IMG/VR virus record: IMGVR_UViG_3300000976_000011 | Span: 1-64,000 of that record | DNA length: 64,000 bases | Strand: one strand, 5' to 3' | Source: a virus | In this document: positions 21,212 through 55,521 of the stretch, one piece after another | How the letters are laid out: the number at the start of each line of letters is the position of its first letter | How positions within the stretch are numbered: position 1 is the stretch's first letter | Position numbers and translations under genes: made by a program | The notes under the pieces: generated by a model | What the model saw: only the letters and a program-made list of their open reading frames with translations | What the model was told of the DNA's origin: nothing | Databases searched by the model: none

Positions 21212-23686
21212 TTAAAATAAACCAGCTGCTTCGGTTTTAGGTTTCATTGACCATCCAATTACATCAGTAACTTTATTTAAATTATTTGTAAAATTTTTGT
21301 TCCAAACCGCTTCATAATCTATGTATCTAAACATTGACTCTGGTAATTGATCTTTAAAAGCTATCATATTGTCGCCTATAGGATTAGGCATCAACAAAGG
21401 AACCAACTTTATTTTATCGCCTTCATATATTGGCTCTAAATCTATATCTTCTTTTTTTATTAGAGCATTAAAATTGATAGCGCCACGAATATGCGATTGT
21501 GCTCCCTTTTTATATGTATCTCCAGATAAGTATTTAGTAATATAATTAATACCTTTATTTTCAGCTATATGAACGATATGTTGCTTCATAAATTCAGGTT
21601 TAAATTTACTTATTCGTTTAATAACATCTTGCTCTGGTACTTCTAAAAGTATGTCTTTTACAATATCCTTTAACTCATTAGCAGCAAATGCAGGTGTAGA
21701 TGATTTGATAATTTCTAAGCCCATTATTTTTATTTTTGGTTCTTTGGGTCTATAACCTTCATCATCTAATACACATAAAGCATATCTTTTCTTTTTACAC
21801 CAAAAACCATTATCAGCGATAACCTCTCTACTCATATTTAGCTTATTTGAATAACAATTCAAATATTCAGAAAAGTCTACGAAAGTTTTATCGATGATTT
21901 TTCTTATAACTTGTTTTTCGAATTGATCGACAAATTCAAGCTTTTGGCTTTTAGACATTCCTGAGCATTCTCTATCAACAATATTACCAATTGTAAAATA
22001 AATTGAATCTGTATCTCCAGCGATAACTAAATCTTTACCTGAATTATGCTTCTTTAATTTATTATTTAATTGATCGGTTATTGATAGTAACGCAAGCTGA
22101 CCTGATTTAGTTATTGATTCAGCAAGTCTTAAGTCAAAATATTGACATTTATCTGAACCTAAAGCGCCATATAAACTATTAAGTAAAATTTTCATAGCGT
22201 GCTGAAATGTATCATGAAGAAGTTCATCTTCTTTTCTACCTTCAGTTTTCGCTTGTTTCATTTTTTTCTTTTCTGAATATCTTCTAGCAAATAACGTGCC
22301 CATTAATTCAGAAAAGAATGATTTTTTATCTGTTTTAAACATAAATCCAGATGGACATATGGTAATATTGTTTTCTTTTAATAGGGAAAAATCATACTCT
22401 TGATCCTTCATTCTATCAAAATCTATATTACAATAAAATTTTTGTAATTCTTCTGGTAATTCAAAAGGGTCTACTAACGTTTCTGGTCCTATGTTCCATT
22501 GTTCTATTATTTTTGGATATAGAGAATCGAAATCTTCTGAAAGAATCCACTTATGCTGTCCTATAACTGGAGGAATAACAAATGCACCCTTAAATGATTC
22601 ATCCTTCTTATTCATTCGAAATTTGATCTCAGGAACAATTTTCTGGTTCATTAAATGATGATATATTGTAGATTCCCAAGTTCGTATTGGGCTGGTAACA
22701 TCCTCGTAATTGACTTTACCAAAATTAGCCACTGTTATAGCTAATCTGATAAGATTTCTTACTTTATCTATGCCTTCTACTAATTCAACGTCTTTAATAT
22801 TATATTCCATAAAGAGTTGATAATTTTCTCTATATAGATTTTTTAAAGATGCATAATCTGAATAATCGATTTTCTTTTCGCCTAATTCAATTTCAGCAAT
22901 AGTATCAAGTTTGTAGTTTTCTCTAGGAATTAATACAAACTTCTTATATAGTGTTAAATAATCTAATCTAGATATTCCATATAAATCGACATATTGGGAT
23001 TCTCTGCCAAACGCGTCAGATCTAAAATATGAATTAGTTGCGCCATATGGCGAAAGTTTATTAGCATAGTCCTCACCAAATAATTTTTTTACTCTATTAT
23101 AAATGTATGGAATATCAAATGTATCAATATTCCATCCTGTGACCACATGTGGTTTTTCCTGGCGCCAAAATTCTACAAAATCTCTAACTAAATCTCTTTC
23201 AGATTTAAATTCTCTATAATCTACATCCTCTCTATCAGTAATAAATGTATCATCATTTAATGGAAGACCCCAAACATAATTTATTCCATTACATTTAATA
23301 GTAATAGCATTCATCGGCCATTCAGCTAAATGAGCTTCAGGAAATCCTTTTTCGACATCGACCTCGATATCTATATTAAATATTTTTACTTTTGAATAAT
23401 CAGTTACACACTCTTCAGGATATTTTTCGAACATAAACTGAACGAGAGCCTTTTTATCTCCATAAACTTTACCGCTTTGTTTCTTTTTTTGCCATAAAGT
23501 TTCTTTGAATTCTTTAATAGAACCATAACTTATAGGAGTTAAATAATTTTTTCTATCAGGAGTTAAATATTCTGTTTTCTTGGAAGCAGGAAAGAACAGC
23601 TTGGGCTGGAAATCATCTACTCGATAATCTCCATCAGTATCTCTAACTAAAATACTGTTTCCTAAATTTATACTATTTATGTACAT
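21212..23686 (-). CDS. 43: family B DNA polymerase (gp43)
   Basis: DIE, GWNI..FD, YNIKD exonuclease motifs; DFDSLYP, KILLNSLYG, GDTDS, KKRYA. Confidence 0.98.
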   Translation of the reverse strand: MYINSINLGNSILVRDTDGDYRVDDFQPKLFFPASKKTEYLTPDRKNYLTPISYGSIKEFKETLWQKKKQSGKVYGDKKALVQFMFEKYPEECVTDYSKVKIFNIDIEVDVEKGFPEAHLAEWPMNAITIKCNGINYVWGLPLNDDTFITDREDVDYREFKSERDLVRDFVEFWRQEKPHVVTGWNIDTFDIPYIYNRVKKLFGEDYANKLSPYGATNSYFRSDAFGRESQYVDLYGISRLDYLTLYKKFVLIPRENYKLDTIAEIELGEKKIDYSDYASLKNLYRENYQLFMEYNIKDVELVEGIDKVRNLIRLAITVANFGKVNYEDVTSPIRTWESTIYHHLMNQKIVPEIKFRMNKKDESFKGAFVIPPVIGQHKWILSEDFDSLYPKIIEQWNIGPETLVDPFELPEELQKFYCNIDFDRMKDQEYDFSLLKENNITICPSGFMFKTDKKSFFSELMGTLFARRYSEKKKMKQAKTEGRKEDELLHDTFQHAMKILLNSLYGALGSDKCQYFDLRLAESITKSGQLALLSITDQLNNKLKKHNSGKDLVIAGDTDSIYFTIGNIVDRECSGMSKSQKLEFVDQFEKQVIRKIIDKTFVDFSEYLNCYSNKLNMSREVIADNGFWCKKKRYALCVLDDEGYRPKEPKIKIMGLEIIKSSTPAFAANELKDIVKDILLEVPEQDVIKRISKFKPEFMKQHIVHIAENKGINYITKYLSGDTYKKGAQSHIRGAINFNALIKKEDIDLEPIYEGDKIKLVPLLMPNPIGDNMIAFKDQLPESMFRYIDYEAVWNKNFTNNLNKVTDVIGWSMKPKTEAAGLF

Positions 23687-23710
23687 TTTTACTTTTTTAT
23701 AAATATATTT

Positions 23711-24535
23711 ATGAATGAAATTAAAAACAAATATTCCAAATGGTATTATAACCTAATGGAATCAAGAAGTAAACTAAATAGGGTTAAATTATCAAAAGAT
23801 AATGCTGATTATGTTTATTACGAAAAACATCATATAGTCCCTAGAAGTTTAGGCGGATCAAATGACCCTGATAATCTAATACTGCTTACCGCTAGGGAGC
23901 ATTTTATAGCCCACTTATTGCTACCTAAATTTCTTATTGGAGCTCATAGAAAAAAGATGGTAAGAGCGCGCTGGTATCTTTCTAATTTATCAAAATATGA
24001 TAATGTTATAAATTCAAGAACTTTCGAAAAATATAGATTAGAATATTCTGGAATTATTTCAGGATCTAATCATCATAATTATGGTAAAGTGTTATCAGAA
24101 GAAACTAAAGCTAAAATGTCTGAATCTAGAACCGGACTAAAGAGATCAGAAGAAACTAAAGCTAAAATGTCTAAAGCAGCAAAAAGACGCCGATATTCTA
24201 AAGAAACTAAAGCTAAAATGTCTGAAAGTAAACAAGGTAAAAATCACCCGCTCTACGGTTGTAAGCATAGTTTAGAAACTAAAGCTAAAATGTCTGAATC
24301 CCATAAAGGAGAAAATAGTTACAAATTTAAAGGATATTATGTCACGCCATTTGGTAAATATGTAACTAGACGAGACTTTGATAAACATAAAGGGATAACT
24401 TCTAATTGGTGTATTAATAACCAAAAACTTGTTAATCTTTTATCATTTAATCGTTGTCCTTATTTACAATCTTTAGGAAAAAATGTTATTGGAAAATCAT
24501 TTAAACAATTGGGTTTTTATTTTGATAAAGTTTAA
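23711..24535 (+). CDS. HNH homing endonuclease with NUMOD3 repeats
   Basis: EKHHIVPRSLGG..NL..LTAREHFIAH; antisense to gp43; TATAAATA 5 nt upstream. Confidence 0.93.
   Translation: MNEIKNKYSKWYYNLMESRSKLNRVKLSKDNADYVYYEKHHIVPRSLGGSNDPDNLILLTAREHFIAHLLLPKFLIGAHRKKMVRARWYLSNLSKYDNVINSRTFEKYRLEYSGIISGSNHHNYGKVLSEETKAKMSESRTGLKRSEETKAKMSKAAKRRRYSKETKAKMSESKQGKNHPLYGCKHSLETKAKMSESHKGENSYKFKGYYVTPFGKYVTRRDFDKHKGITSNWCINNQKLVNLLSFNRCPYLQSLGKNVIGKSFKQLGFYFDKV
24098..24300 (+). repeat. four copies of GAAACTAAAGCTAAAATGTCT (ETKAKMS, NUMOD3)
   Basis: In-frame direct repeats seen in sequence. Confidence 0.85.
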
Positions 24536-25203
24536 AGGTCCATAATTTCTATTTCATTTTCTACAAAAGTTTTTAAGCTGTCTAAATCGCCATCGTTATT
24601 ATAATTCTTTTCTACCATAATGAAACGTTTATTTTTATCATTTTTATAAACCCACTCTCTAGAGTCACCGACGAAATTTTTAGCATTACGGAAAATACGT
24701 CCAATAATTCTTATTGGTGATAGTTTCGGTATTTGAGATTTTCTTTCAATTCTATATAGATAAAGTCTTATAGGATCAGATTTATTTTTTTCATTATATT
24801 CTTCGACAAGCTCACACAATCTATCAAATTCACACTGAAAACCTATATCAGTAATAATAAAATTATCAATATCATCTACATCAGCCTCAATTTTTTTAAA
24901 TAAAAGATCAGCAAATATTTCAGGATAGAAAGTAGTTTTAAGAAATTTTTCACCATAATCTATCATACATTGCCGGAACGTCGGAGAATTTGGAACATTT
25001 GGAAATAATGGTCTTCCTTTTCCTAATTCTCTGTAATATGAATATTCTTCATTATTAAAGCTAAAAGTAGCCTTTAAAGCATCACCGATTGGCTCTGCCA
25101 TTTTATATATTTTAGATTTACCAAGAGCTTTAGTAGAAAAATATTTTCCAAAAGTATCTTTACCTGCTCTAGGATGACCGTTTGCACAGATTATTTTTTT
25201 CAT
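24532..25203 (-). CDS. dNMP kinase (gp1-like)
   Basis: NGHPRAGKDT P-loop, TFRQ.MI..GE, IITD.GF..E. Confidence 0.8.
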   Translation of the reverse strand: MKKIICANGHPRAGKDTFGKYFSTKALGKSKIYKMAEPIGDALKATFSFNNEEYSYYRELGKGRPLFPNVPNSPTFRQCMIDYGEKFLKTTFYPEIFADLLFKKIEADVDDIDNFIITDIGFQCEFDRLCELVEEYNEKNKSDPIRLYLYRIERKSQIPKLSPIRIIGRIFRNAKNFVGDSREWVYKNDKNKRFIMVEKNYNNDGDLDSLKTFVENEIEIMDL

Positions 25204-25217
25204 GAATAAATAGGTAT

Positions 25218-25469
25218 ATGAGTGTTATAAAAATACCAAATGTTGTTAAGGCTGGTCAGGGTACTAGAAGTGTCGCCAGACGGCTTGATTCAGTATATGC
25301 TTATTTTGTAGGGTATATTACTGGCGGTTCGCCATCTGTGTTTGTTGGAGATGCTTCTGCAGCTCAGGTTGAACCTATGCCGATTCAACCAGTAATATCT
25401 GATGCATTACCAGAGTCAGATATAATAATATATGACTCTGGCTTCGTTAGAAAAAACGAAATGTTTTAA
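25218..25469 (+). CDS. PAAR/gp5.4-like small late protein (partial domain)
   Basis: SVARRLDSV and ITGGSPSVFVG resemble PAAR repeats; AATAAATA 5 nt upstream. Confidence 0.5.
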   Translation: MSVIKIPNVVKAGQGTRSVARRLDSVYAYFVGYITGGSPSVFVGDASAAQVEPMPIQPVISDALPESDIIIYDSGFVRKNEMF

Positions 25470-26371
25470 TCATCGTCACCGAAATAATTATCGAATTTAC
25501 CAGAAAAATCAGTAACGTCATCATCCAAAGTAGATTCATCAGCTTTCGCTTTTTCTTCTACCTTTTCAACAAGGTCATCTAATTCATCATCAAAACCTGC
25601 AGCTTTATTGGCAGATTCTTTTACTTCTTCATTTACTGCGCCTTCACCAGTCTTTTCATGAAATAATACTGCTAATTCATCATAAGACTTCATTTCAGAC
25701 TCGTATTTAAACTCCTTAATAGGATATAAAGATTCCACTACTTTTTCCAAAGTGGCTTGATCATCTTCATATAAGGCACTAGGAGCTTGGAAAGAAGATT
25801 TGTCATAATTAGGATATTCACCCTTCTTAATGATTTTAAAATTAAAATTTGCACCTTCATCAACATCAAACGGATCGATTGGCATCTCATCGTCAAATTC
25901 TGGCTTAATGCATGCTTTAATCATATTAAAAATAGATTTACCAAATTTGAACAGAAACACTTTTCCTTCGTTTGCTGGATTTGCAGGATCTTTAATAACT
26001 AAAATATTAGCCACATAGTGATATTTTCTGCTTCTAGCTTTAACATATTCAGGAACTAGAGAAGGCTCGCCGCCAGCGTCATCCCAATGTTTACCATTAG
26101 CTTGACATACTGGGCAATCTTCGCCTAAAGTAGTAGGACATTTCTCAACGAAATAGCCTTTATCTGTTTTAAAGAAGTGATCAAAGTACTGAGTCCATGG
26201 ATTACCTTCTAGATCTTGTTGAGGTAAAAATCTAATAATAGTATTAGCATTACCTTGTTTATCTCTAGTAGCTTGCCAGAAGCGCTCGTCTACTTGTCTG
26301 GTTTGATTAATTTTGTCAGCTAGGGCACCGACGCCTTTTCTTTTCTTTCTTAATTCACTTAAACTTGACAT
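25466..26371 (-). CDS. 32: single-stranded DNA-binding protein (gp32)
   Basis: DERFW, IRFLP, CP.T....CPVC, NILVIKDP, GANF, NYDKS, acidic tail. Confidence 0.97.
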   Translation of the reverse strand: MSSLSELRKKRKGVGALADKINQTRQVDERFWQATRDKQGNANTIIRFLPQQDLEGNPWTQYFDHFFKTDKGYFVEKCPTTLGEDCPVCQANGKHWDDAGGEPSLVPEYVKARSRKYHYVANILVIKDPANPANEGKVFLFKFGKSIFNMIKACIKPEFDDEMPIDPFDVDEGANFNFKIIKKGEYPNYDKSSFQAPSALYEDDQATLEKVVESLYPIKEFKYESEMKSYDELAVLFHEKTGEGAVNEEVKESANKAAGFDDELDDLVEKVEEKAKADESTLDDDVTDFSGKFDNYFGDDD

Positions 26372-26402
26372 TTATTTTATGCTCTTTTTATTATCATTTT
26401 AA

Positions 26403-26993
26403 TTATTTTATTATCGTTTCTAGTGTTATTTTTTCAAATACGACTAAATCAACATTCATGAAAGTTTTATACTTTTGTATTTTTAACTTGAATTCATTAA
26501 ATTGATCATCATCTTTGAGTGAGACATTCCTATCTAGGAATTTAAAATATATATCGAGCAACACTAGAGTCTCGAAACATATTTTATTCTGAATAAAGTA
26601 CTGGATAACTTTTGGAAGTTCTCCATGTTCACTTATTAGTTGACTCTTTATATTTATATGAGATAGAAATCTCAAATCACGAAAATAATAATCCTTTAAA
26701 TTCGCATTAATTTTCTTCCATTTTTCAAGTATATCATAAGATTCTTGAGATGTACTATTATATACTGAAAAGCCTTGATTGTAAACAAAATTTGCAACTA
26801 AATAATCTTTAAATGAATCTAAGTCTTTAAATTTATATCTAAACTTATTAAATAATCCTTTATCACGCCTTCTTAAGAATGATTGCCTAGATGCATTTAC
26901 TTTACCATTATACTTATTATAATTATATCCTTTTGAATTAAAGTGTCTTTGAATTGCTAAATATCTTACATAATAGTGATAACTATCAATCAT
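26403..26993 (-). CDS. 59: helicase loader (gp59)
   Basis: YLA..RHF...Y.Y.KYNGK...F..RRD..F, VANF, ETLV.LD. Confidence 0.92.
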   Translation of the reverse strand: MIDSYHYYVRYLAIQRHFNSKGYNYNKYNGKVNASRQSFLRRRDKGLFNKFRYKFKDLDSFKDYLVANFVYNQGFSVYNSTSQESYDILEKWKKINANLKDYYFRDLRFLSHINIKSQLISEHGELPKVIQYFIQNKICFETLVLLDIYFKFLDRNVSLKDDDQFNEFKLKIQKYKTFMNVDLVVFEKITLETIIK

Positions 26994-27321
26994 GATTTTC
27001 TAAAAAGAACTTAGTGGATTCCGCATCAAGTTTTATAAAATTTTCGCCTTGTATGCGAGATGAATTAGCACTTTGTAATTCTAACATATCTATTCGATTC
27101 TTTAATGAATTTATTTTGCATATAATAAATATTCCAGGCTCATACTTATCAAAATTATACCATTTAGAATTATACTCATTTTTAGATATGCTCATCTTAT
27201 TTTCAATATCTTTTAACTCATTTTTTAAACTGTTAATTAATTTAGGTAATTTTGAAAAATAAAGATCGACGTTAACTATTAATGTATTCATTTTAAAATA
27301 AGCCTTCTGGTAATCCTTCAC
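26986..27321 (-). CDS. hypothetical protein
   Basis: Packed ORF. Confidence 0.55.
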   Translation of the reverse strand: MKDYQKAYFKMNTLIVNVDLYFSKLPKLINSLKNELKDIENKMSISKNEYNSKWYNFDKYEPGIFIICKINSLKNRIDMLELQSANSSRIQGENFIKLDAESTKFFLENHD

Positions 27322-27514
27322 TTAGATCTATATTATATTCTTCAGATAATGTAATTCTGAAATTATCGCCTAGGAGTGGTACAACATCTTCTACATCTAC
27401 ATCAAAGGTTTCTGCTGTAGTTAAAATAGCATGAATTAGAGATTTAGGATAATCTTCTCTCAAAACTCTATCTAATTCAAAATTAAACGTATTAAATCTA
27501 TCGTTCATACTCAT
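27293..27514 (-). CDS. 33: late transcription coactivator (gp33-like)
   Basis: F..E......S.I.AI...E..DVD.E.V..LL pattern; near gp59/gp32 as in T4; GLF C-terminus. Confidence 0.7.
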   Translation of the reverse strand: MSMNDRFNTFNFELDRVLREDYPKSLIHAILTTAETFDVDVEDVVPLLGDNFRITLSEEYNIDLSEGLPEGLF

Positions 27515-27698
27515 TATAATCACCAAATTTTAATATTGACATTATTAAATTTATATCTAAATCCAATTTATTTAATTCTTCTTTAATTAACTTACGCCCT
27601 GCAACCATTTCAAAATGCTTATAATATAAATTAGCAAGTTCTGCAATTTCATGTTTATGAGTTTTTATATAAATGAATCTTACTAACTGTTTAATCAT
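27498..27698 (-). CDS. hypothetical protein
   Basis: Packed ORF. Confidence 0.5.
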   Translation of the reverse strand: MIKQLVRFIYIKTHKHEIAELANLYYKHFEMVAGRKLIKEELNKLDLDINLIMSILKFGDYNEYER

Positions 27699-27937
27699 TG
27701 TTTTATTTCATTCCTATAAAAAGATTCTATCATTGCTACTGTTGTAGCAGCAACTTGAACTAATTCTTCAATATAACCTTCATCATCATTTTCTAAATTA
27801 GCTTTGCATACTTCTCCGTATTCTTCGCCAAGAATACTACACCACCTATCAACTGAATGATTCTGTTCACCCCATTTAATGTCTTGATTTAATCTTTTAT
27901 TTTCGATTAGCTCGAATATCTCATCAATCGTTATCAT
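27695..27937 (-). CDS. MazG-like nucleotide pyrophosphohydrolase
   Basis: KWGEQNH..W..ILGEEYGEV..A...EELVQVAA. Confidence 0.85.
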   Translation of the reverse strand: MITIDEIFELIENKRLNQDIKWGEQNHSVDRWCSILGEEYGEVCKANLENDDEGYIEELVQVAATTVAMIESFYRNEIKQ

Positions 27938-28163
27938 TTTCTTTCCTTCCAATTAAAGCATCTATATCATCAGCATCCACTGTATAAATCGAGGTACGGT
28001 AACAAGTTTTTATATTTACTGGCATACCATCCAATAAAGCCTCAATAGATACTTCATTTAAATATCCATCAAAGACTTCTTGAAAAATTTCAAGTTCTGC
28101 ATGATACTTGCTTAATAGCGCTCTTAGATCTTTTAAGAACTCTAATTCGTTTTTCTTGCTCAT
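27924..28163 (-). CDS. hypothetical protein
   Basis: AGGAG SD. Confidence 0.65.
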   Translation of the reverse strand: MSKKNELEFLKDLRALLSKYHAELEIFQEVFDGYLNEVSIEALLDGMPVNIKTCYRTSIYTVDADDIDALIGRKENDND

Positions 28164-28180
28164 AAATAATTCTCCTTAAA

Positions 28181-28210
28181 GCGAGAGGATCATTAAAGTG
28201 TTCCTCTCGC
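28181..28210 (-). terminator. probable terminator hairpin
   Basis: GCGAGAGGA/TCCTCTCGC inverted repeat. Confidence 0.65.
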
Positions 28211-28234
28211 GTATATTTTAAAATGATTTTCTTT

Positions 28235-28747
28235 TTATCCATTATGAACAGTTTTATCTTCTACATGAGATTTCAATTTCTTCATAGTTCGCCGAATTAA
28301 TCGAGTCATAAATAAAACCATCACTAATACCGAAACCGAAATAAAGACATCTAAATAATTAATTGCTGTGAATGCTAGAAACGGAATTGTAAATAATATT
28401 CCACATCTTTTAATGAATTCAACACAAACTTCACCAGGACGAATAAATTGCGCTCTAAATTCTTCAATAGTTTCATCAATATCTATACTATAACTTCTAA
28501 AAGTTTTTCCTAAATGATCAGGATTTGAACTCAATCTATAGTAGCCATCATATTCGCAGTGGTATCTATATTTTCCATAACCACAAAATAAACTAAAAAG
28601 CCAATTTGTATTAATTAAAGACTTTTCTTCTTCAATCCAAGCAATAACCAACTGAATCGCTTTTCCACCTGCTAAAATAAAAACACATATAGCAAGCCAA
28701 AGAGCGAATCCGTATCCTAAGTGTTGTAAATCCATTGATATATTCAT
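28235..28747 (-). CDS. membrane protein
   Basis: Three hydrophobic segments. Confidence 0.7.
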   Translation of the reverse strand: MNISMDLQHLGYGFALWLAICVFILAGGKAIQLVIAWIEEEKSLINTNWLFSLFCGYGKYRYHCEYDGYYRLSSNPDHLGKTFRSYSIDIDETIEEFRAQFIRPGEVCVEFIKRCGILFTIPFLAFTAINYLDVFISVSVLVMVLFMTRLIRRTMKKLKSHVEDKTVHNG

Positions 28748-28759
28748 AATTTAATTTTC

Positions 28760-29200
28760 CTATAGTTTGTTAATTGTAATTCCTGTTTCTTTCATAATAT
28801 CATATCCTAATTCAGAAGATTCTGACCATCGAGTCTCTGATTCAGGGTCACAATTTTTAAAAAATATTGTATCTACACCTACTTGAGCTATTGCTGAAGC
28901 GCATTGATGGCAAATGGGTAAACCATACACATACATATAAGAACCCTGTAATTTTATACCATTACGTGTTGCGTTGTAAATACAATTTTGTTCTCCGTGT
29001 ACAATATACTTATATTTAGTCTCTCTTTCTCTATATCGCTTCTCAGTATCTGAAATGCCTCTAGCAAAACCATTATATCCAGTTGATAAAATGTTTTTAG
29101 TATCTGGATTTATAGCAACTACTCCAATCTTAGTAGAAGGATCTTTAGACCAAGTAGAAATATGCTCAGCAAGATTTATAAATTTTTCGTTCCAACTCAC
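28760..29200 (-). CDS. cd: dCMP deaminase
   Basis: WSKDPST, GYNG, HGEQN, PICHQC. Confidence 0.93.
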   Translation of the reverse strand: MSWNEKFINLAEHISTWSKDPSTKIGVVAINPDTKNILSTGYNGFARGISDTEKRYRERETKYKYIVHGEQNCIYNATRNGIKLQGSYMYVYGLPICHQCASAIAQVGVDTIFFKNCDPESETRWSESSELGYDIMKETGITINKL

Positions 29201-29490
29201 GCTGACTCTGGTTTAGAAATATATGAACTTCCATCGTGGCCACATCCAGCAAATAAAAATTCTATATTATCCTTTTTGTAAGAGATCCACCAGTCATATT
29301 GCCAGCCATTGCAATCAAATTCTTCAGATTCTTCCCAGCCATTTCTATGAGCATAACGACTGACATCAGCTGGTGAAACATAGATGTCGAAATTAATGGA
29401 ATCTAATTCATTAGGTCCATTAGAGTCTTCTGTTAATTTGTTAATAGCATCATCTATTAAAAGATTTGGATCATCGTTATATGTTTTCAT
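29197..29490 (-). CDS. hypothetical protein
   Basis: NGWQYDWW motif; packed. Confidence 0.65.
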   Translation of the reverse strand: MKTYNDDPNLLIDDAINKLTEDSNGPNELDSINFDIYVSPADVSRYAHRNGWEESEEFDCNGWQYDWWISYKKDNIEFLFAGCGHDGSSYISKPESA

Positions 29491-29807
29491 AGTAAACTCT
29501 TCTTTTCACCGTAAGGATAATACTTTATAGACTCCAATGAATGCCAACCATATTCACCGTAGGGTGCCATATCGGCCACGGCTTCCAGATCTAAATAGTC
29601 GGGATCATCTTCTTCGATAGCTTCAGCCCAATGACCATGATATTCGCTACAAGCGAAGTCTTCATAGTTAGGAAATCTTCGTTTAACGACGGCGATTCGT
29701 CGCTTTAATTCTTCTAAGCCTTCGTCTGTAACAGAGATTACTCGTGTTAAATAATCCGCATCATTAGTATCAACTACAACTTCTACATACCACTTATATT
29801 CTTTCAT
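29487..29807 (-). CDS. hypothetical protein
   Basis: DTNDADY...PYGEYG.HSLES phage family pattern. Confidence 0.7.
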   Translation of the reverse strand: MKEYKWYVEVVVDTNDADYLTRVISVTDEGLEELKRRIAVVKRRFPNYEDFACSEYHGHWAEAIEEDDPDYLDLEAVADMAPYGEYGWHSLESIKYYPYGEKKSLL

Positions 29808-29822
29808 AATTTAATTATCTTG

Positions 29823-30041
29823 TTATCCTAATAACTCACCTAATTTAAAATATTTTCTAGGCTTATTATAATGGTTTGATATTCTTCGTTCAAGAAATTG
29901 CAACCAGACATATGAACCGTCATCCATCTTAACGGGTATAATAGCAAAATGTTTATGCCATTTATCATATTTTTTATATCTGAGTTTTCTTCTTTGTTTA
30001 AAGAAAATTTTGATATTATCTAGTCTCAAATTAATTATCAC
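29823..30041 (-). CDS. hypothetical protein
   Basis: WH..FA..PV......VWL motif. Confidence 0.6.
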   Translation of the reverse strand: MIINLRLDNIKIFFKQRRKLRYKKYDKWHKHFAIIPVKMDDGSYVWLQFLERRISNHYNKPRKYFKLGELLG

Positions 30042-30210
30042 AATTATACATCCATCTTAGTTTTCCGCCATGATCCTGAGAAACTATAGAAGTCTTTTTA
30101 CAATTTTCTTCTAACCAAGCTTCATTAGTATGATTATCATATACCATTTTTCCAAATAAGTAAATTGCTATACACCAAATACTTATAGTTAATATTTGCA
30201 ATACTCTCAT
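30031..30210 (-). CDS. small membrane protein
   Basis: TAATG overlap; N-terminal hydrophobic helix. Confidence 0.55.
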   Translation of the reverse strand: MRVLQILTISIWCIAIYLFGKMVYDNHTNEAWLEENCKKTSIVSQDHGGKLRWMYNCDN

Positions 30211-31280
30211 TAAAATAATCCTGTAGCTTCTGAAACTACTTCTGGTTTTCCTGTCCAATGTGGATAAAATTCTCTAGATAAGTGTACTGATCTAGGTTTT
30301 TCCATATAAGCAAAATCTAATTCATCTTTAGAATTTTCTAAATAATCTGTCCACTCTAAAACCTTTATATTAGTATTATTTGTTTCTACATATAATCTAT
30401 CTATAAATTCGCCTCTTATAAAGTCTCTATCGTGCCATGAACCCCAGAATGGTTTACCTTTATGCCATCCTGATTTCGGAACAACTCTGGATTCATTTTC
30501 GATAGGTAATGGAACATATATAGAAGCATTTTTTATATTTAGACTTTTAATCTGATTAACGTATCTGATTACTAAATCATTAACTATACCTTTAGCTTCA
30601 TCTAGATTTTTACTTAAACGATAAATATGATGTCTTATATCTATATTTCCAAAATAAAATTCTAAAGAATCATAATGATTCAAATTTTGAGGTATAAAAC
30701 TTTCTAAGCCTCGGTTGATGGCCCCATTAAGCGTTTGAAAAGGTACACTATTAACAGCCCAACCAGCTCTATACATACTAATTGCATGAGAGTCTCCTAA
30801 AACTAATTTTTTAGAATTAAAATTATTAGCAGGATCAAAATAATCTTCTTGTTTAGATAACTTAGTTAACTCTGCTAAATCTATATTGTCCCAAATTTCT
30901 GGATATCCGGATTGAGATTTTAATCTATTATATACCATAAAGCCATAATCTGGCATTGGTATTTTACAAGATATTATTTCTTTATTATTAAATTTACAAT
31001 ATTTAGCATATAAAGAAATTTTAGCTAGCTGTCTTGCAACAGGTTCATTTTTTAAACCACCAAATAAATTTAATGAACCTGAGAAGTCATTACCATGATA
31101 TAAATAAATTTTATCATATTCCAAATAATCTTCTATGATATTATCAGATGTCTCAATATCTACTACATCATCTGTATATTTAGTCTTAATCATATCATAA
31201 AGAATCCAGCCTTCTGCTGATTTATGAGAATATAATCGACTTGATATTAAGTTAACTGGTCCCGTTATAAGTATCTTCAT
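30210..31280 (-). CDS. SGNH-like protein of DNA-modification cluster
   Basis: LVLGDSH, YFGNIDIRHH, RSVHLS; ends in GLF. Confidence 0.6.
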   Translation of the reverse strand: MKILITGPVNLISSRLYSHKSAEGWILYDMIKTKYTDDVVDIETSDNIIEDYLEYDKIYLYHGNDFSGSLNLFGGLKNEPVARQLAKISLYAKYCKFNNKEIISCKIPMPDYGFMVYNRLKSQSGYPEIWDNIDLAELTKLSKQEDYFDPANNFNSKKLVLGDSHAISMYRAGWAVNSVPFQTLNGAINRGLESFIPQNLNHYDSLEFYFGNIDIRHHIYRLSKNLDEAKGIVNDLVIRYVNQIKSLNIKNASIYVPLPIENESRVVPKSGWHKGKPFWGSWHDRDFIRGEFIDRLYVETNNTNIKVLEWTDYLENSKDELDFAYMEKPRSVHLSREFYPHWTGKPEVVSEATGLF

Positions 31281-31636
31281 TTAATAATCTGTCCGTTATT
31301 TCTTTTACTACTAAATCATGCATATCGTTCGCTTCATCATCAGCATCTATATTATCTATAAACCATTTTGATTGAAATGAAACTTGTTTACTTACATCAG
31401 CATCATTATATCTATAATCATCTTTTTAGATAAAAAGGCCATAGTTTCAAAATATCTTCCAGGTCCAATTTCTAAAAATCCAGTATCTAATTTATTTTTT
31501 TCTAAGACCTACAGTAGAAACTACAATTTTTACACCGTCATATCTTTCAATTAGTGTATTTCTTCTAAATAAACAGTCCATAGCATAAATATAATGACCA
31601 GCCCCAACCTCTTTCTCTCTTATGAACGTATCTCAT
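31252..31636 (-). pseudogene. frameshifted phage hypothetical gene (RERGWAGH...CLFRRNTL...IVVSTVG...RYFETMAF)
   Basis: Coherent protein recovered only after correcting three homopolymer indels (G4, A7, A5). Confidence 0.7.
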
Positions 31637-31639
31637 AAT

Positions 31640-31936
31640 TTAAGTATAATCTCTAAGCTGAGTTTGTAACTCGTTACATGCTAAATCTACTACTCCATAT
31701 TTAACTTCATTTGTAACTAAATTTCTTAGGCCTAGAAGCATTAATTTTCCAGGTAACTCAACTTCAATTATATCTAGCGGAAAAAATTCTTCCAGTGCGC
31801 AAGAATTTAAATTTTCCAAATCTGATATTTCATCGCAGAAATCAAATTCAACGGCTTTATAGAAACATGTCCATTCGCCTTCTAAGTTTAATTGTTCTTT
31901 AGCTTTATCTATATCGCCAATAGTTAATAAGTTCAT
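31640..31936 (-). CDS. hypothetical protein
   Basis: Packed ORF. Confidence 0.65.
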   Translation of the reverse strand: MNLLTIGDIDKAKEQLNLEGEWTCFYKAVEFDFCDEISDLENLNSCALEEFFPLDIIEVELPGKLMLLGLRNLVTNEVKYGVVDLACNELQTQLRDYT

Positions 31937-31938
31937 AT

Positions 31939-33027
31939 TTAAAATAATCCATCTGATTCATGTTTTCGTTTATTAATTATATCATAAAACGAATCAAATG
32001 TTAATGGTAATATTCTTTTTATTTGAGCTTTTTCATTATTTTTAATAGCTTCGAAGCAGGCAAATTGACAAAAAGTAATTTCAGTACCAAAAGTTGTGAG
32101 ATATCCATCACGCTCTAAATTATTCTTATAGAATTCAAATAATTCTTCAGATTCAAACTCAAAGAATTCATGTTGGTGATCTCTAATAGATAAAATTATG
32201 TTCTCCATGGCGTTATTGTTATTCAACTTAACATCAGGAAAAACGAATTCCATACCACGTTTAGCACCAGGACCTACAAGACAATAGTTATCATCTTCAT
32301 CTATATGTTTTAAGTCTTCAGACCTACTAAAATTGCATGGAGGATGATAACCAAAATATGGTCCTATGCCTCTATGACTAATTAACCATTCACAAACATC
32401 AGATAATTTATTTTCTTTATCAATCACTACAGAGCTAAGACCTAAATCGTCCAAATGCACTATCCATTCTATCATATCAGATAAATGAAATTTTCTTTGA
32501 GGGTCAACATATTTTTCTCTGCAATAATTTCTTGCAGCAGTCTGTAATGATGTCTGTAATTGTGTTTTACCCCACACGGCTAACTTCATTTGATTTATAT
32601 TTAGGTTCTCATTAATAAAATCAAAGTATTTAACGTCCTTTCTATAAAGATCAAAATCTATTATATTAGAATAATCTAGAGAGTTGGTGGCCACTAGGGT
32701 AAGTGTTGGCATTCCAACAAATTTTACTACCATAGCATTAAGAATTTTATTTCTTAATGAAGTATCTTTATTAAATACAAAATTTTCTAGCCAATATACT
32801 TCAGCGTGCTTAGATCGATTTGGATTCCAATATGAAACTTCTTGTCTCATAGCAGGCCCAAATAAAGGATTCTCTACATACTCATCTATACGATCTGATT
32901 CTCTAAGACATTCTCGCTTAAAGAAATCTAAGACCCATGTATTAAAATAATCAAAATTTTCTTTATTGGTCATATCTTTAAGTTGACCTAAAGATAGCGG
33001 TTTTTCTTTATAAGATTGTATCTTCAA
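31939..33027 (-). CDS. aGPT-Pplase / amino acid:DNA transferase-like (HhH fold) DNA-modifying enzyme
   Basis: RGIGPYFGY, VGPGAKRGM..VF, E...CQF motifs; ends in GLF. Confidence 0.75.
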   Translation of the reverse strand: MKIQSYKEKPLSLGQLKDMTNKENFDYFNTWVLDFFKRECLRESDRIDEYVENPLFGPAMRQEVSYWNPNRSKHAEVYWLENFVFNKDTSLRNKILNAMVVKFVGMPTLTLVATNSLDYSNIIDFDLYRKDVKYFDFINENLNINQMKLAVWGKTQLQTSLQTAARNYCREKYVDPQRKFHLSDMIEWIVHLDDLGLSSVVIDKENKLSDVCEWLISHRGIGPYFGYHPPCNFSRSEDLKHIDEDDNYCLVGPGAKRGMEFVFPDVKLNNNNAMENIILSIRDHQHEFFEFESEELFEFYKNNLERDGYLTTFGTEITFCQFACFEAIKNNEKAQIKRILPLTFDSFYDIINKRKHESDGLF

Positions 33028-34505: not shown

Positions 34506-34853
34506 TTATCCTATTCTCTGATATATTAAAGCTGTGACTATTGTCCATTCATCAAAACTATCACCATAACCTTCTTTCATCATATCAAATAAAACTTCTT
34601 TATTTCTAGCGCAAACATTGTGCTCCATTTTAAGCAGTCTTGATGGTATATTAAAAAAATCTCCAGTCCAGAAACCTAGTGATATTCCCTTTCCAACCAA
34701 TTTATCTTCTTTATCATCACTAAACTCTTCTACTAAATGAAATTTTTCATTAGGCTGTATAGCCCACTTTAAACCCTTTCTTATAGTAACACCTATATCA
34801 AAACATGCTAGATCAAATGTGTGGTCTAAATTTTTTAGTTGTTTAGTAGTCAT
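34506..34853 (-). CDS. ASCH/PUA-like hypothetical protein
   Basis: GVTIRKG.KW motif; weak. Confidence 0.4.
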   Translation of the reverse strand: MTTKQLKNLDHTFDLACFDIGVTIRKGLKWAIQPNEKFHLVEEFSDDKEDKLVGKGISLGFWTGDFFNIPSRLLKMEHNVCARNKEVLFDMMKEGYGDSFDEWTIVTALIYQRIG

Positions 34854-36117
34854 TTTTAGAATCCTGAAAAGTATATTCTAAATCAGATACTACTGGATCT
34901 TTAGTAGCTAATTGTTTTCTAGTGGTTGAAGTTAACTCTCGACGCGCTAAAGCGTCACACTCAAATTTTGCATCTTCAGTTTTCATTTGTACTGGTGGGC
35001 TTTTCTGAGTCCAAGCAGATGGGCCACGTAAGTAACCTACTAATCCCATCTCAGCAGCTACTTGAGCGAAACGAATTGCCGAAATAACAACTCCACCTGA
35101 ATTAGGTGAATCTTGAACAGATAATCTAGCAGTTAATTCATAACGAGCGCCAGCAAAACCATAAGCAACAATATCAAAATTAGCAATCTTATTGTCAGAC
35201 CCAATATATTCGCCACCTGGTTTTTGCTGTACGGTTAATGAGGGACCAGCGAACAATGTCATACCTTCTATAGACTCGTCTCGTACATGATTCTGACCTT
35301 TCAGAACGTTTTCTTTAGAAATATGTTTATTTTCTAAGCGGTCCTGTTTAGCCATATTTAGAAAATCAGTATTTGCTGTACGACCTGTCCGAATATGTTC
35401 TTGGCCTTGAGTAGAACCAGATGCCATATTGGTTTGGATGTGTTGAGTTACCATTAAACCAGAATCAATCATAGCTCCTTGTAAAACTTCAGACATTCTA
35501 GAAGCTCCCCATGCTGAACGCATATCAGAACCTACAAATGTTAAACCTGCATTAATAAATTTTTGTTCGACTCTTTTAGTATCTTCAGTAGAAATTAAAG
35601 TTGGAATACAATTAACAAAATGAACGCCTGCTTTAAGTGCTACATCTACCCAAAATTTCGAAGCTTCTTCAGACCCAACAGGTAAATAATTTACTAACAT
35701 ATCTACATCGAACGATTCAATTAAATCTACCGCTTCAGTGAAAGACACAGCCGTGTCAGCTTCAGTTCTAAAAGAGACATCTTCAGGATAATCATACATA
35801 TGAGGAGCTACGCCATCCAACAAAGGAGCAGAAAAAACTCCCGCTGAGTGTGGAACTACATTAGAAGTAATTTCTTTTACATGATTCATTGCACAATTTG
35901 GTTTAGCTAAAATTGCTTCTCTAAGATTTATTCCTACCTTTCTACGATCAACATCAAAGCCAATAACATATTCAATATCATTAACAGTATAGCCGCCAAT
36001 ATCTTCATACATTAAGCCGACTTTATCTTGAGGATTATCTTGATAATATTGAGTTCCTTGAATAAGGGAAGAAGCGCAGTTACCGACACCGATGATGCCA
36101 ACACGAATTTTTTTCAT
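34843..36117 (-). CDS. ino1: myo-inositol-1-phosphate synthase (Ino1 family)
   Basis: GIIGVGNCASSLIQG, FDVD..KVG, NYLPVGS, FVNCIP, NTDFLNM, SK, DSPNSGGV, KSPP. Confidence 0.93.
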   Translation of the reverse strand: MKKIRVGIIGVGNCASSLIQGTQYYQDNPQDKVGLMYEDIGGYTVNDIEYVIGFDVDRRKVGINLREAILAKPNCAMNHVKEITSNVVPHSAGVFSAPLLDGVAPHMYDYPEDVSFRTEADTAVSFTEAVDLIESFDVDMLVNYLPVGSEEASKFWVDVALKAGVHFVNCIPTLISTEDTKRVEQKFINAGLTFVGSDMRSAWGASRMSEVLQGAMIDSGLMVTQHIQTNMASGSTQGQEHIRTGRTANTDFLNMAKQDRLENKHISKENVLKGQNHVRDESIEGMTLFAGPSLTVQQKPGGEYIGSDNKIANFDIVAYGFAGARYELTARLSVQDSPNSGGVVISAIRFAQVAAEMGLVGYLRGPSAWTQKSPPVQMKTEDAKFECDALARRELTSTTRKQLATKDPVVSDLEYTFQDSKNDY

Positions 36118-36200: not shown

Positions 36201-36527
36201 ATTTGTAGCAGACAAAAATATTTCCATTTCTGCGCCTTCAAGAGTTATATAATCAATCATATTAGAATTATATAACAAAACAAATCTTCTGTAAATATCT
36301 TCAATTTGTGCTCGTTGAATAATAAGTCCAGTATATTTGTTAAGATTTTCTTCTTCAATTTCTTTTAAAACTGCTTTATTAGAAACTGCTTTGCGTCGAA
36401 ATATCCGTAAACCATTAGACATTTTTTCTCGAATTTGTTCAAAATTAACTTTTAAGAAATAATCTATTTCATTCTCTATAATAGGAAAATTATTCTTAAA
36501 ATCGTTAATCGGAATTTGAATTTGCAT
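36192..36527 (-). CDS. hypothetical protein
   Basis: Packed ORF. Confidence 0.6.
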   Translation of the reverse strand: MQIQIPINDFKNNFPIIENEIDYFLKVNFEQIREKMSNGLRIFRRKAVSNKAVLKEIEEENLNKYTGLIIQRAQIEDIYRRFVLLYNSNMIDYITLEGAEMEIFLSATNHK

Positions 36528-37293
36528 ATTCGCTCTCAGGATATAATTTGTTATAAGAAGATTTTGTAATATCTAGCATTCCAGTTTTAATAAAATGATC
36601 TACAATATAAAAATGTCTTTCATATACGTGAAGATTTTGAACCTGCCAAAACATATTACCAACTGATAAATTTAAATCTTTAGCTAATTCTTTAAGAACA
36701 TAATCTTGCCACGCTTTATCATTACGATATCCAAAATAAACATCATTAGATCTCATTTGGACGACGCAATCAAGCTTGCCATGTCGAATATAATAGCTTA
36801 CTGAGTTAGTACAGACAAAATCATTTTTGCCGTTTTCACAATAATCATAATGCATGGTAGGTCTATTATAAATCATAGATGCTCTACGAGAATCTGGATT
36901 AGTCTTTAATTCTTGGAAAACATTATTATATTGATCTCCATATTTTTCTGAAAAAATAAGTAATCCATAATTAGAATTAATTTCGCCATCAGGGTTAGCA
37001 GCATATGACCACGCTTGTGGTGGCTGAAATTGTCTACCATTAATATCTAAAATATTACTTGATTGACTTTCATACCATTTTAATTCTTTTTCAATATAAT
37101 CTTTATTTGGAGTACCGAAAATGGCTTCTTCGTTAGCTTTAAAAGAAGCTCCTATTAATTCTATAGTTTTTACGCCTGTTTTATCAGTAGTAAAATGTTT
37201 ATAGAATAACATATCAGCAAAATGTTCTCTTATATTATCCATATCTGATGTGTTTTTCCACTTCATAGGTTTACCTTGTTCTATAATAGCCAT
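36505..37293 (-). CDS. 42: dCMP hydroxymethylase (T4 gp42-like)
   Basis: E..WY, INSNYG, SRRA, DFVCTN (catalytic Cys), MRSND..FGYRND (Asp specifying dCMP), LHVYERHF. Confidence 0.9.
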   Translation of the reverse strand: MAIIEQGKPMKWKNTSDMDNIREHFADMLFYKHFTTDKTGVKTIELIGASFKANEEAIFGTPNKDYIEKELKWYESQSSNILDINGRQFQPPQAWSYAANPDGEINSNYGLLIFSEKYGDQYNNVFQELKTNPDSRRASMIYNRPTMHYDYCENGKNDFVCTNSVSYYIRHGKLDCVVQMRSNDVYFGYRNDKAWQDYVLKELAKDLNLSVGNMFWQVQNLHVYERHFYIVDHFIKTGMLDITKSSYNKLYPESEYANSNSD

Positions 37294-42747: not shown

Positions 42748-42987
42748 ATGAACTTAATAGAAGAATTGGAAGGAATTTTCGAAGTGGAAAATAATATCAT
42801 TTTAGATATCAACTTTGTAGGTTCTGAAGAAGATGCAATGAAAGTTGCTAAACAAAATGGTATTAAATTTAAAGGATCGAAAATGTCTGGTCCTAAAGAT
42901 ATGGTAATGAAATTTCTTACAAGCGATCAAAAAGTATTTAATATTGATGATTTAAAGAAAGAACAGCCAAATCTATTTAAAGGTTAA
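42748..42987 (+). CDS. late hypothetical protein
   Basis: TATAAATA at 42713; followed by terminator. Confidence 0.65.
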   Translation: MNLIEELEGIFEVENNIILDINFVGSEEDAMKVAKQNGIKFKGSKMSGPKDMVMKFLTSDQKVFNIDDLKKEQPNLFKG

Positions 42988-43323: not shown

Positions 43324-43812
43324 ATGACTAAAAAGAAAAATGAATACTATATAGAACCTAAAGTCTTTATACCAGAACTTAAAGCTTGGAAAGAAGCTAG
43401 AGCTCTTGATCCTTCAGTACAGTGGAGCGATAGTTTATGTAAAAAGTTTATGAAGATTATTGAAGGTTTATCCCACCATAAAAGTTTTTCAGGCTATAGT
43501 TATATAGATGAAATGAAAGACGAAGCATTGTTTCATATTATGAAATATGGCCATAATTATAATCCCGATAAGTTAGATGATAAAGGAAGACCATATAATC
43601 CATTTTCTTATTATAATAGAATTGCTTGGCAAGCTTTTGTTTCTATCATTAATAAAGAAAAACATCAGCAAATGATTAAAGGTGAATATTTAAGAAAGAA
43701 TTATACTTTAGATAGCGAATTATTTCTTGATGGAGCTGAAGATCACACTCAAGCATTAGACATGATGGCAAAAATGTATGATGTAAAATCTAAAGAGACA
43801 GAAGATAAATGA
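43324..43812 (+). CDS. 55: late sigma factor (gp55)
   Basis: KI.EGLS....F.GYSY.DEM.D, Y..N..P, NPFSY...IAW.AF...I.KEK.Q. Confidence 0.93.
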   Translation: MTKKKNEYYIEPKVFIPELKAWKEARALDPSVQWSDSLCKKFMKIIEGLSHHKSFSGYSYIDEMKDEALFHIMKYGHNYNPDKLDDKGRPYNPFSYYNRIAWQAFVSIINKEKHQQMIKGEYLRKNYTLDSELFLDGAEDHTQALDMMAKMYDVKSKETEDK

Positions 43813-50301: not shown

Positions 50302-51000
50302 ATGAAATTAACAGCAGACTTATTGTCGAAGCTAACCAAATTATCTAGAATCAATAATAGCATTGTATTAACTGAAGGTAATGTATTAGGTGTAAAACAA
50401 ACTGATGCTCATGTAGCAGATGTGATTTTAGAAGAGGCTATCCCAGCAGAAGCAGCAATTTATGATTTACCGCTCTTCATTAAGACTCTAGGATTATTCA
50501 ATGTTGATAATACTAAGTTAGAATTTTCTGATTCTAGAATCATTATTAAGTCAAAATCACAGAAAGCGTCTTATCTATTAACTGAAAAGCGCTTAATAGA
50601 CTCATGTGCGCCTTCTGCTTCAGTTCAGCAAGTAGCTTCTTCTGGTAAATTAGGTGAAGAACTTTTATCTTTTGAACTATCAGGAGAATTACTGGCTCAA
50701 ATTACTTCAAATGCTAAAACACTTGGTTTAGATCATATTTCTTTTGCTATGAAACAAGGTGTTCTTACAGTAACTATTTGTGATAAAAATAACCCAGGTG
50801 AAAATAGTATCGAAACTGTGGTAGCACAAGCTGATTCTCCAGAATTTGAATATGTGTTTTTAACTGAAGATTTCATGAAAATTCCAGCATCTATTTACAA
50901 TATGACATTCTATAAAGATGTAGCTTCGTTTACTCTTATATCAGATAATTTCAATATGTTCTTATGTGCAGACGCGGAATTCACAACTAAGGTTACTTAA
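50302..51000 (+). CDS. 45: sliding clamp (gp45)
   Basis: MKL....L..L...IN.SI, AIYDL..F; position between gp46 and gp44. Confidence 0.9.
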   Translation: MKLTADLLSKLTKLSRINNSIVLTEGNVLGVKQTDAHVADVILEEAIPAEAAIYDLPLFIKTLGLFNVDNTKLEFSDSRIIIKSKSQKASYLLTEKRLIDSCAPSASVQQVASSGKLGEELLSFELSGELLAQITSNAKTLGLDHISFAMKQGVLTVTICDKNNPGENSIETVVAQADSPEFEYVFLTEDFMKIPASIYNMTFYKDVASFTLISDNFNMFLCADAEFTTKVT

Positions 51001-51610: not shown

Positions 51611-51669
51611 GAGGGACAGCAATGTGTTACTCCGTTGTTGGATAATACTTCCAATATTAACCTAACCTC
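51611..51669 (-). ncRNA. structured endonuclease-leader RNA, copy B
   Basis: GAGGTTAG...AACAACGGAG..CACATTGCTGTCCCTC, shared with 42656-42711. Confidence 0.7.
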
Positions 51670-51685
51670 TAATAATTATTTATTA

Positions 51686-52884: not shown

Positions 52885-53095
52885 AAAAGAAAAAAGAAAA
52901 GTATTGATAAAATACAAATTATTTGAATCTGAAGTAGTTCGAACTGCAACTTTTTTCGATAATGATAGATTATATTTAGCAATATCTGAAGGTTTTTGGG
53001 TAACATCTTATCACAATAGAGCATTAGGTTTTAATGAAAGATCAGATTATGTTCTTCCAAAAAATATCTTGAGTGTTTATGTCCCAGATAGTTAA
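52871..53095 (+). CDS. hypothetical protein
   Basis: GAGG SD. Confidence 0.55.
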   Translation: MEVNKKEKRKVLIKYKLFESEVVRTATFFDNDRLYLAISEGFWVTSYHNRALGFNERSDYVLPKNILSVYVPDS

Positions 53096-55229: not shown

Positions 55230-55521
55230 TGAAATATTAAATAAAATAGATTATGTTGCTGCTAGGGTAGTTCCTAGATTTCTTAATGAAAACTGTGTTA
55301 ATGGATTTTCTATAAAAGAAAATGATGAAGAATTAGAGCTAATAGGTTTTCATGGAAAACTTCTTTATCTTCATAAAAATAAATTTCAATCAGACTTATA
55401 TAGAATGTTTATTTTTCAAGCTATTTGTGAATATAAATGCATAGAATTAAATGAAAACGAACTTGATATAATTTTAGAATTTCAAGAAGCAATACCAAAA
55501 TATAACCGGAGAACCCATTAA
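55219..55521 (+). CDS. hypothetical protein
   Basis: Packed ORF. Confidence 0.55.
   Translation: MLTDEILNKIDYVAARVVPRFLNENCVNGFSIKENDEELELIGFHGKLLYLHKNKFQSDLYRMFIFQAICEYKCIELNENELDIILEFQEAIPKYNRRTH

Follow-up and report, generated by a model that had tools for sequence, protein, structure and literature searches.

Four proteins encoded on the minus strand of an uncultured T4-like phage, among them the replicative DNA polymerase gp43 and two putative DNA hypermodification enzymes, share the C-terminal ending Gly-Leu-Phe (GLF), which we interpret, with a probability of about 0.7, as the peptide by which proteins of this phage lineage dock on the gp45 sliding clamp. The DNA analysed, called the window below, is the first 64 kb (positions 1 to 64,000) of the viral record IMGVR_UViG_3300000976_000011. 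The complete record has 141,675 bp, direct terminal repeats and 30.7% G+C and, judged by its genes, is a distant T4-like phage. The open reading frames (ORFs) that end in GLF-stop (Table 1) are those of gp43 (KTEAAGLF, with the GLF codons at 21215-21223), of a small protein that is probably the late-transcription co-activator gp33 (GLPEGLF), of a two-domain protein with an SGNH/GDSL fold, here called E356 (SEATGLF), and of an enzyme resembling the aGPT-Pplases, here called E362 (HESDGLF).

A preliminary description of the window had stated that these four proteins, and no other ORF, end in this way. The coordinates and a search of the whole genome agree with it: no fifth GLF ending was found among ORFs of at least 40 amino acids, either in the window or in the entire 141,675 bp, which hold 495 such ORFs, 258 of them non-overlapping. 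Four GLF endings among 258 genes compare with 0.06 expected by chance. When the columns of the C-terminal tripeptides were shuffled in 20,000 trials, GLF turned up in two copies in 23 of them and in three copies in none. Three of the tails share the longer pattern E-[A/S]-x-G-L-F (EAAGLF in gp43, EATGLF in E356 and ESDGLF in E362). Since the glycine codons of the four tails differ (GGT, GGC, GGA and GGA) and the DNA beyond the stop codons is unrelated, the match lies in the peptides and does not reflect a DNA repeat. The tails lie outside the folded cores, in segments that have low confidence in the AlphaFold2 (AF2) models, as measured by the predicted local distance difference test (pLDDT), and that vary in length in alignments. 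The shared ending is a genuine, non-random feature. Of the canonical patterns (S/T)LDFL(F/L/Y) and L(E/D)xFF, the tails have neither the first Leu nor the first aromatic residue; what they match is the tail of the phage's own gp43, GLF being identical in all four proteins.

The same correspondence between enzyme tails and polymerase tails is found in related phages. A scan of viral contigs with E356 as the query gave 255 relatives; 80 loci were retained, and the tails and strict-motif counts given next are those of the retained loci. Nearly all E356 homologues have endings like TLEDFFS, SLENFFA or TLEEFF, the E362 homologues end in TLDSFFS/V, SIEEFLI, TLEDFLCGA or SLSEFM, and TLDEFFG/A, SLEDFFS or NLEEFFT are found at the ends of the gp43 proteins from those contigs. 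In one locus (G001), gp43 ends in TLDEFFG, E362 in TLDSFFV, E356 in TLEDLFV and a DNA methylase in TLETFFE; in another (L064), gp43 ends in TLESFLN and E356 in SLEDFLS. A strict motif, defined as L[ED]xF[FLM] followed by 0-2 residues at the C-terminus, is present in 6 of 7 gp43, 45 of 64 E356 homologues and 3 of 12 E362 homologues. A looser pattern takes in all 12 E362 homologues, and a hydrophobic tail is present in 58 of the 64 distinct E356 homologues. The other distinct ORFs of these loci number 2,907 and show the strict motif in just 17 cases; all 17 are the same protein of about 400 amino acids, a C5 cytosine DNA methylase (PF00145, Pfam) encoded directly after E356. The whole genome of the window phage has no C5 methylase. 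The proposal, made in the preliminary description, that the tail singles out the DNA-acting steps of the modification pathway fits these counts, the only other family with the strict motif being a DNA methylase. A GT4 glycosyltransferase, present in the clusters of some relatives, ends in ETSVFDFFE. Among the 119 nearest gp43 sequences in a collection of 5.8 billion proteins, 117 have a canonical-type hydrophobic tail, mostly (S/T)L(E/D)xFF, and the KTEAAGLF of the window is the sole GLF.

These results bear on one rival explanation of the shared ending, namely chance, an effect of AT-rich composition, or a degradation or stability tag unrelated to DNA. At 30% GC, the codons TTA, TTT and TAA are favoured, and one baseplate hub protein elsewhere in the genome does end, by chance, in a canonical-looking GLEDFLV. 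We nevertheless regard this explanation as scarcely credible: three GLF copies never arose in the shuffled sets, orthologues retain the ending, only gp43 and DNA-modifying enzymes carry the strict motif, and there is no rationale for a degron shared with the replicative polymerase. The GLEDFLV tail, rejected as a look-alike, belongs to a phrog_150 protein encoded outside the window with the full ending HEGLEDFLV, and it calls for caution in loose motif searches. A 79-aa ORF of the window without a family match ends in NLFKG.

By the evidence of the E362 tree, the GLF type is derived and clade-specific. The closest relatives of the window E362 are 89% identical (P0125, on a Tara Oceans contig) and 75% identical (P0126) and end in ESEGLF and NYQRLF, respectively; homologues at 72% identity or less have canonical tails. 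In a maximum-likelihood tree built without the last 25 residues, the three proteins group together with 100/100 support, and their clade lies within a set of sequences with canonical tails. P0154 is a fourth protein with an xLF ending, which has a separate origin in this tree. The E356 homologue adjoining P0126 on its contig ends in ELFGGLF, and PEGLF and PDDLF are the endings of the gp33-like protein's two known relatives. Because relatives of E362, E356 and the gp33-like protein all end in xLF, three client families of the clade changed together. A joint change of every client to xLF is what a shared receptor would lead one to expect.

The identity of this receptor is suggested by the T4 family itself. 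The C-terminus of T4 and RB69 gp43 is the binding site for the gp45 clamp; the established gp45 ligands comprise the T4 gp43 tail (EKASLDFLFG), the tails of gp33 and gp55 and an LDFLF loop of the ligase, and the clamp-binding peptides are interchangeable between T4 proteins (PMC2988020; PMC6212786). The window phage encodes its own gp45 clamp and gp44/62 loader (phrog_223, phrog_168 and phrog_225). The preliminary description had interpreted GLF as a clamp-binding motif, and the comparison lends support to this, as the tails of the homologues appear to track the gp43-type tail. The clamp has itself diverged: gp45 of the window is 26% identical to that of cyanophage S-SM2, as compared with 40-42% for two relatives with canonical tails, whereas for gp43 the identity to the cyanophage protein is 37.7% (38% when rounded) in the window and 44-47% in the same two relatives. 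Relative to these two phages, gp45 and gp55 have diverged from their cyanophage homologues far more than gp43, gp41 and gp44. A divergent gp45 is expected if the clamp pocket and its ligands changed together, and the figures are consistent with such co-evolution, although they do not prove it.

Alternatively, the peptide might dock on another phage partner, such as the clamp loader, gp32 or a modification complex centred on the polymerase. The comparative data point to a common selected peptide and leave its receptor unnamed, and the canonical gp33 tails of the relatives differ from their gp43 tails, which would allow more than one receptor or binding mode. We consider this unlikely since the homologous position of T4 and RB69 gp43 binds gp45, the LDFLF loop of T4 ligase occupies the same pocket with a dissociation constant (Kd) of about 10 uM (PMC2988020; PMC6212786), and no other receptor is known for this class of peptide. 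It could also be argued that GLF is a motif of the bacterial beta-clamp type, and that the host's beta clamp replaces gp45, or acts besides it, as the docking site of the polymerase and the enzymes. Pol II of E. coli likewise belongs to polymerase family B, and it attaches to the beta clamp by its C-terminal QLGLF (Kd 1.7 uM; PMC11139829), of which the last three residues and the free carboxylate are identical to those of the window tails. However, the window tails (EAAGLF, EATGLF, ESDGLF and LPEGLF) are without the Gln and Leu that occupy the first two positions of the motif and account for most of its affinity (motif rules in PMC11139829), and the phage retains gp45 and gp44/62, which makes this reading highly improbable. 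The same low likelihood attaches to a bolder version, in which the lineage rebuilt the whole code linking clamp and clients: the gp45 pocket, now divergent, and four or more clients would have passed together from LExFF to GLF, an ending that copies the QLGLF of Pol II, and the polymerase and the modification enzymes may ride the host beta clamp, in addition to gp45 or in its place.

Several observations weigh against gp45 docking as we propose it. The affinity of GLF for a gp45-type pocket is uncertain because the first Leu of the canonical motif (LDFLF or LExFF) is missing. The E356 homologues of three loci (L003, L048 and L109) have no tail despite a tailed gp43, and the E362 tail of L109, NRLF, is unlike the TLDMFFS of its gp43. 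Bona fide gp33 proteins of the relatives have endings of the KLP[I/V/F] type, unlike their gp43 tails. For T4 alpha-glucosyltransferase, a reported interaction with gp45 could be reproduced neither in vitro nor in vivo (PMC13216743; bioRxiv 10.64898/2025.12.06.692756). Finally, gp43 of the close xLF relatives was not found: the nearest of 2,008 matches are just 41-42% identical, a metagenome scan with the C-terminal 300 amino acids of gp43 found nothing, and four of five longer related contigs are without gp43, so that for gp43 itself the evidence of stepwise covariation within the xLF clade comes from a single genome. The check on covariation proposed in the preliminary description otherwise has a positive outcome: homologues of both enzymes carry the gp43-type tail of their own phages. 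Full-text literature searches found no description of clamp-type tails on phage hypermodification enzymes or methylases. As a separate observation, three bona fide gp33 sequences of related marine phages (L102, L095 and L110) end in KLPI, RLPV or KLPF after a segment of the EDLNFL type.

If GLF docks on gp45, E-[A/S]-x-G-L-F at a free C-terminus would be this lineage's version of the T4-family docking peptide. The polymerase, the gp33-like co-activator, E356 and E362 would each bear it on a flexible linker. The clamp trimer, which the gp44/62 loader is expected to load onto phage DNA during replication, has three pockets, and the four clients would either compete for these or occupy them jointly. 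Once tethered, E356 and E362 would stay on the new DNA, whether at the fork or on clamps that remain behind after replication; this DNA probably contains 5-hydroxymethylcytosine, and modification could be completed before host nucleases meet unmodified sites. By analogy with T4, we infer that GLF binds the gp45 of the window and that modification is coupled to replication; DNA modification would then probably be tethered to newly copied DNA.

What is known of the two enzymes comes from structure prediction and comparison. E356 (AF2 pLDDT 86, falling below 50 at residues 347-355) is laid out as an N-terminal alpha/beta domain of about 150 residues, a C-terminal SGNH/GDSL domain and the flexible tail. 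Residues 154-342 adopt the SGNH/GDSL fold (Z 12.9 and a root-mean-square deviation of 2.8 over 164 residues to 7e16), and Foldseek and VIA matches are GDSL esterases and O-acetyl esterases/transferases, including those acting on peptidoglycan. The invariant residues include G161-D-S-H164 (the GDS of block I) and G210-N211 (block III). Where block V usually has DxxH, there is an invariant S330-x-H332 (SVHLS), with Ser in place of the Asp and with the His present. The conserved core ends at W341 and a length-variable segment follows. Residues 1-150 had no usable match in the ESM Atlas. E362 is all-helical (AF2 pLDDT 87, below 50 at residues 340-344 and 359-361), with a conserved core that ends at R337, again before a length-variable segment. 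Its sole Pfam match is PF18723 HMUDK_hel (38 bits, cut-off 25, residues 201-293). The top structural match is the 5-PmdU glycinyltransferase gp46 of PaMx11 (8z2n; Z 10.2 over 232 residues, a moderate value for a helical protein), and OGG glycosylases come next with Z of 7-9. Foldseek alone gave a weak result (E 0.07), VIA-align a usable one, and a hidden Markov model profile of the E362 family had no match among PDB sequences. The Aeromonas phage 44RR2.8t encodes both as a single fusion of 795 aa, the 'hypothetical protein' ORF233c (phrog_17781), which has one tail, SLDGLFAI; this, too, favours the docking reading. The split polymerase of this phage (43B) ends in NNLFDMFDI.

As to the remaining clients, the names gp43, SGNH, aGPT-Pplase-like and gp45 given in the preliminary description hold, and the name gp33 is weakly backed, its PF16805 match lying below the cut-off. 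The protein is the sole PF16805 match in the whole genome (E 0.036, 11.5 bits). Its two relatives match at E 0.014 and 0.006, and the three, at 11.5-16.8 bits, do not reach the 25-bit cut-off, whereas bona fide gp33 of the loci G001 and G002 score 61.8 and 37.3 bits. The 73-aa protein (77 aa if the ORF is read from the TTG at 27526) is small and acidic, is encoded two genes upstream of gp59 and gp32, and has a subterminal Leu-Pro that is also present in the relatives' bona fide gp33. Alignment of its family with two bona fide gp33 by hhalign gave a probability below 1% and an E value of 0.086, the profiles being too shallow, and a tblastn search of phages with the 77-aa ORF gave no match. On these grounds, the protein is a probable gp33. 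Between its gene and gp59 lies a 111-aa ORF without a family match, which has 29 bases in common with the end of the gp33-like gene. The late sigma factor gp55 had been described as lacking the tail, and it does: the protein ends in SKETEDK, its C-terminus (MYDVKSKETEDK) having no hydrophobic tail. Residues 128-136 of gp55 (43705-43731), 26 residues before the C-terminus, read TLDSELFLD, a canonical-like sequence that could be a vestigial or an internal clamp motif. The gp45 gene lies between gp46 and gp44/gp62, an arrangement also seen in cyanophage S-SM2.

Table 1. Positions of the genes and proteins discussed (window and genome coordinates, or locus:coordinates for related phages)
Feature	Position	Strand	Basis or remark
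gp43 family B DNA polymerase	21212..23686	-	PF00136, PF03104, phrog_262 (3.7e-237); 824 aa; GLF ending
HNH-NUMOD3 homing-type endonuclease	23711-24535	+	PF07460 (5e-27), PF01844
gp32	25466-26371		
gp59	26403-26993		
111-aa ORF	26986-27321	-	no family match
Probable gp33 late-transcription co-activator	27293..27514 (ORF 27293-27526)	-	PF16805 below cut-off; 73 aa from ATG 27514; GLF ending
E356, two-domain SGNH/GDSL-fold protein	30210..31280	-	AF2, Foldseek, VIA; GLF ending
E362, aGPT-Pplase-like helix-hairpin-helix (DNA-glycosylase superfamily) enzyme	31939..33027	-	PF18723 HMUDK_hel, VIA; GLF ending
Inositol-1-phosphate-synthase-like protein	34843-36117	-	
ThyA homologue with dCMP-hydroxymethylase signatures	36505..37293	-	PF00303
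79-aa ORF	42748-42987		ends NLFKG
gp55 late sigma factor	43324..43812	+	28% identical to S-SM2 gp55, E 4e-14
gp45 sliding clamp, proposed tail receptor	50302..51000	+	phrog_223 (1e-30), weak PF09116
Clamp loader gp44	51635-52633	+	phrog_168 (1.2e-87)
Clamp loader gp62	53073-53618	+	phrog_225 (7.8e-31)
Canonical ThyA	55521-56519		
Baseplate hub protein (outside the window)	96140-96892; L106:2141-2890		phrog_150; ends HEGLEDFLV
C5 DNA methylases after E356	L054:11095-12303, L028:11044-12273, L016:11122-12324, others		tails include NTLETFFE, SSLETFF, LQLDQFML
GT4 glycosyltransferase	L028:6012-7097		ends ETSVFDFFE
Bona fide gp33	L102:12111-12347, L095:2894-3136, L110:14603-14941		
44RR2.8t ORF233c (E356-E362 fusion)	L081:6001-8388		phrog_17781

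The nature of the modified base is suggested by a homologue of thymidylate synthase. Compared with the canonical ThyA of the same phage, the product of 36505-37293 has Asp for the Asn of PFN (FGYRND) and Asp for the Leu three residues before the catalytic Cys (DFVC). The equivalent of Asn-177 sets cytosine specificity and that of Leu-143 is tied to hydroxymethylation (PMC13326640). The two Asp at these positions are a signature of a deoxycytidylate (dCMP) hydroxymethylase of the gp42 type, which probably supplies the base later modified by the tailed enzymes. The cluster also contains MazG-like pyrophosphatases, a deoxynucleoside monophosphate (dNMP) kinase, dCMP deaminase, the canonical ThyA, an inositol-1-phosphate-synthase-like enzyme and an FkbM methyltransferase. 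This suggests that the phage DNA contains 5-hydroxymethylcytosine, which would then be modified on the polymer by E362 and E356. No P-loop 5-hydroxymethyldeoxyuridine (5-hmdU) DNA kinase, the partner expected of an aGPT-Pplase that acts on kinase-activated 5-hmdU in DNA, was recognised in the phage, where the only candidate is a 128-aa ORF with a weak match to a polynucleotide-kinase PHROG. Should the hydroxymethylase assignment be right, an aGPT-Pplase-like enzyme would be acting on a cytosine derivative, a case so far undescribed. The inositol-1-phosphate-synthase-like protein is 69-83% identical among the relatives, as compared with 42-47% for the adjoining E356.

The other replication and recombination genes identified are those of gp32, gp59, gp41, gp61, UvsX, UvsW and gp46/47, beside gp43, gp45 and gp44/62; regA, NrdAB, dNMP kinase, dCMP deaminase and the two thymidylate-synthase homologues were also found. 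A megablast search of phage records with positions 21212-33027 gave no match. The endonuclease gene at 23711-24535 stands between gp43 and the dNMP kinase gene on the opposite strand, and the 359 bases between a 98-aa ORF and the start of E356 (31281-31639) hold no ORF of at least 60 amino acids.

How phages with modified DNA manage to modify every new strand before host nucleases cut it is an old question, and the sole physical link that had been proposed, that of T4 alpha-glucosyltransferase to gp45, is now disputed. A polymerase-type peptide occurs on three or four unrelated enzyme families (SGNH-fold, aGPT-Pplase-like, C5 methylase and GT4) in hundreds of uncultured T4-like phages. To this the window adds a coordinated, clade-wide switch to GLF, that is to say, a natural covariation test. 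The tail could serve as a practical marker separating DNA-acting from nucleotide-acting genes in modification clusters, the various tails may define orthogonal pairs of clamp and peptide, and 44RR2.8t, a cultured T4-like phage, should be a tractable system for tail deletions.

The closest known counterparts are the gp43, gp33 and gp55 tails of T4 and RB69. As in the window, each is a short hydrophobic-acidic peptide at the extreme C-terminus on a flexible linker, and within one phage both the polymerase and the late-transcription co-activator carry it (in the window, a probable gp33). The window differs in having E-x-x-G-L-F in place of (S/T)LDFL(F/L/Y), hypermodification enzymes among the clients and a gp55 without a tail, and here docking is predicted. 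In eukaryotes, the binding of DNMT1 to PCNA through a PIP-box couples DNA methylation to replication. There too a DNA-modifying enzyme rides a sliding clamp and new DNA is modified, as we propose for the window, and the relatives' C5 DNA methylases are tailed; the clamp and the motif are unrelated, however, and the purpose in the phage is probably protection from host nucleases and not epigenetic inheritance. That a DNA-modifying enzyme of a phage rides the clamp had already been put forward for T4 alpha-glucosyltransferase on the basis of in vitro work. The study that disputes it saw no gp45 binding with C-terminally His-tagged alpha- and beta-glucosyltransferases (NAR 2026, PMC13216743). Unlike that proposal, ours is based on a polymerase-type tail conserved across three or four enzyme families. 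E. coli Pol II and the window gp43 are both family B polymerases that end in GLF with a free carboxylate, whereas the window tails have no counterpart of the Gln and Leu with which the bacterial QL[S/D]LF motif begins, and the phage supplies both a loader and a clamp of the trimeric type. Lastly, E362 has the same helix-hairpin-helix fold class as the aGPT-Pplases or 5-PmdU transferases of thymidine-hypermodifying phages (PaMx11 gp46, and those of M6 and ViI) and matches the related Pfam model HMUDK_hel. It differs from these in belonging to a phage whose hydroxymethylase is of the cytosine type and in which no partner 5-hmdU DNA kinase was identified, in being paired with an SGNH-fold protein, to which it is fused in 44RR2.8t, and in carrying a clamp-type tail.

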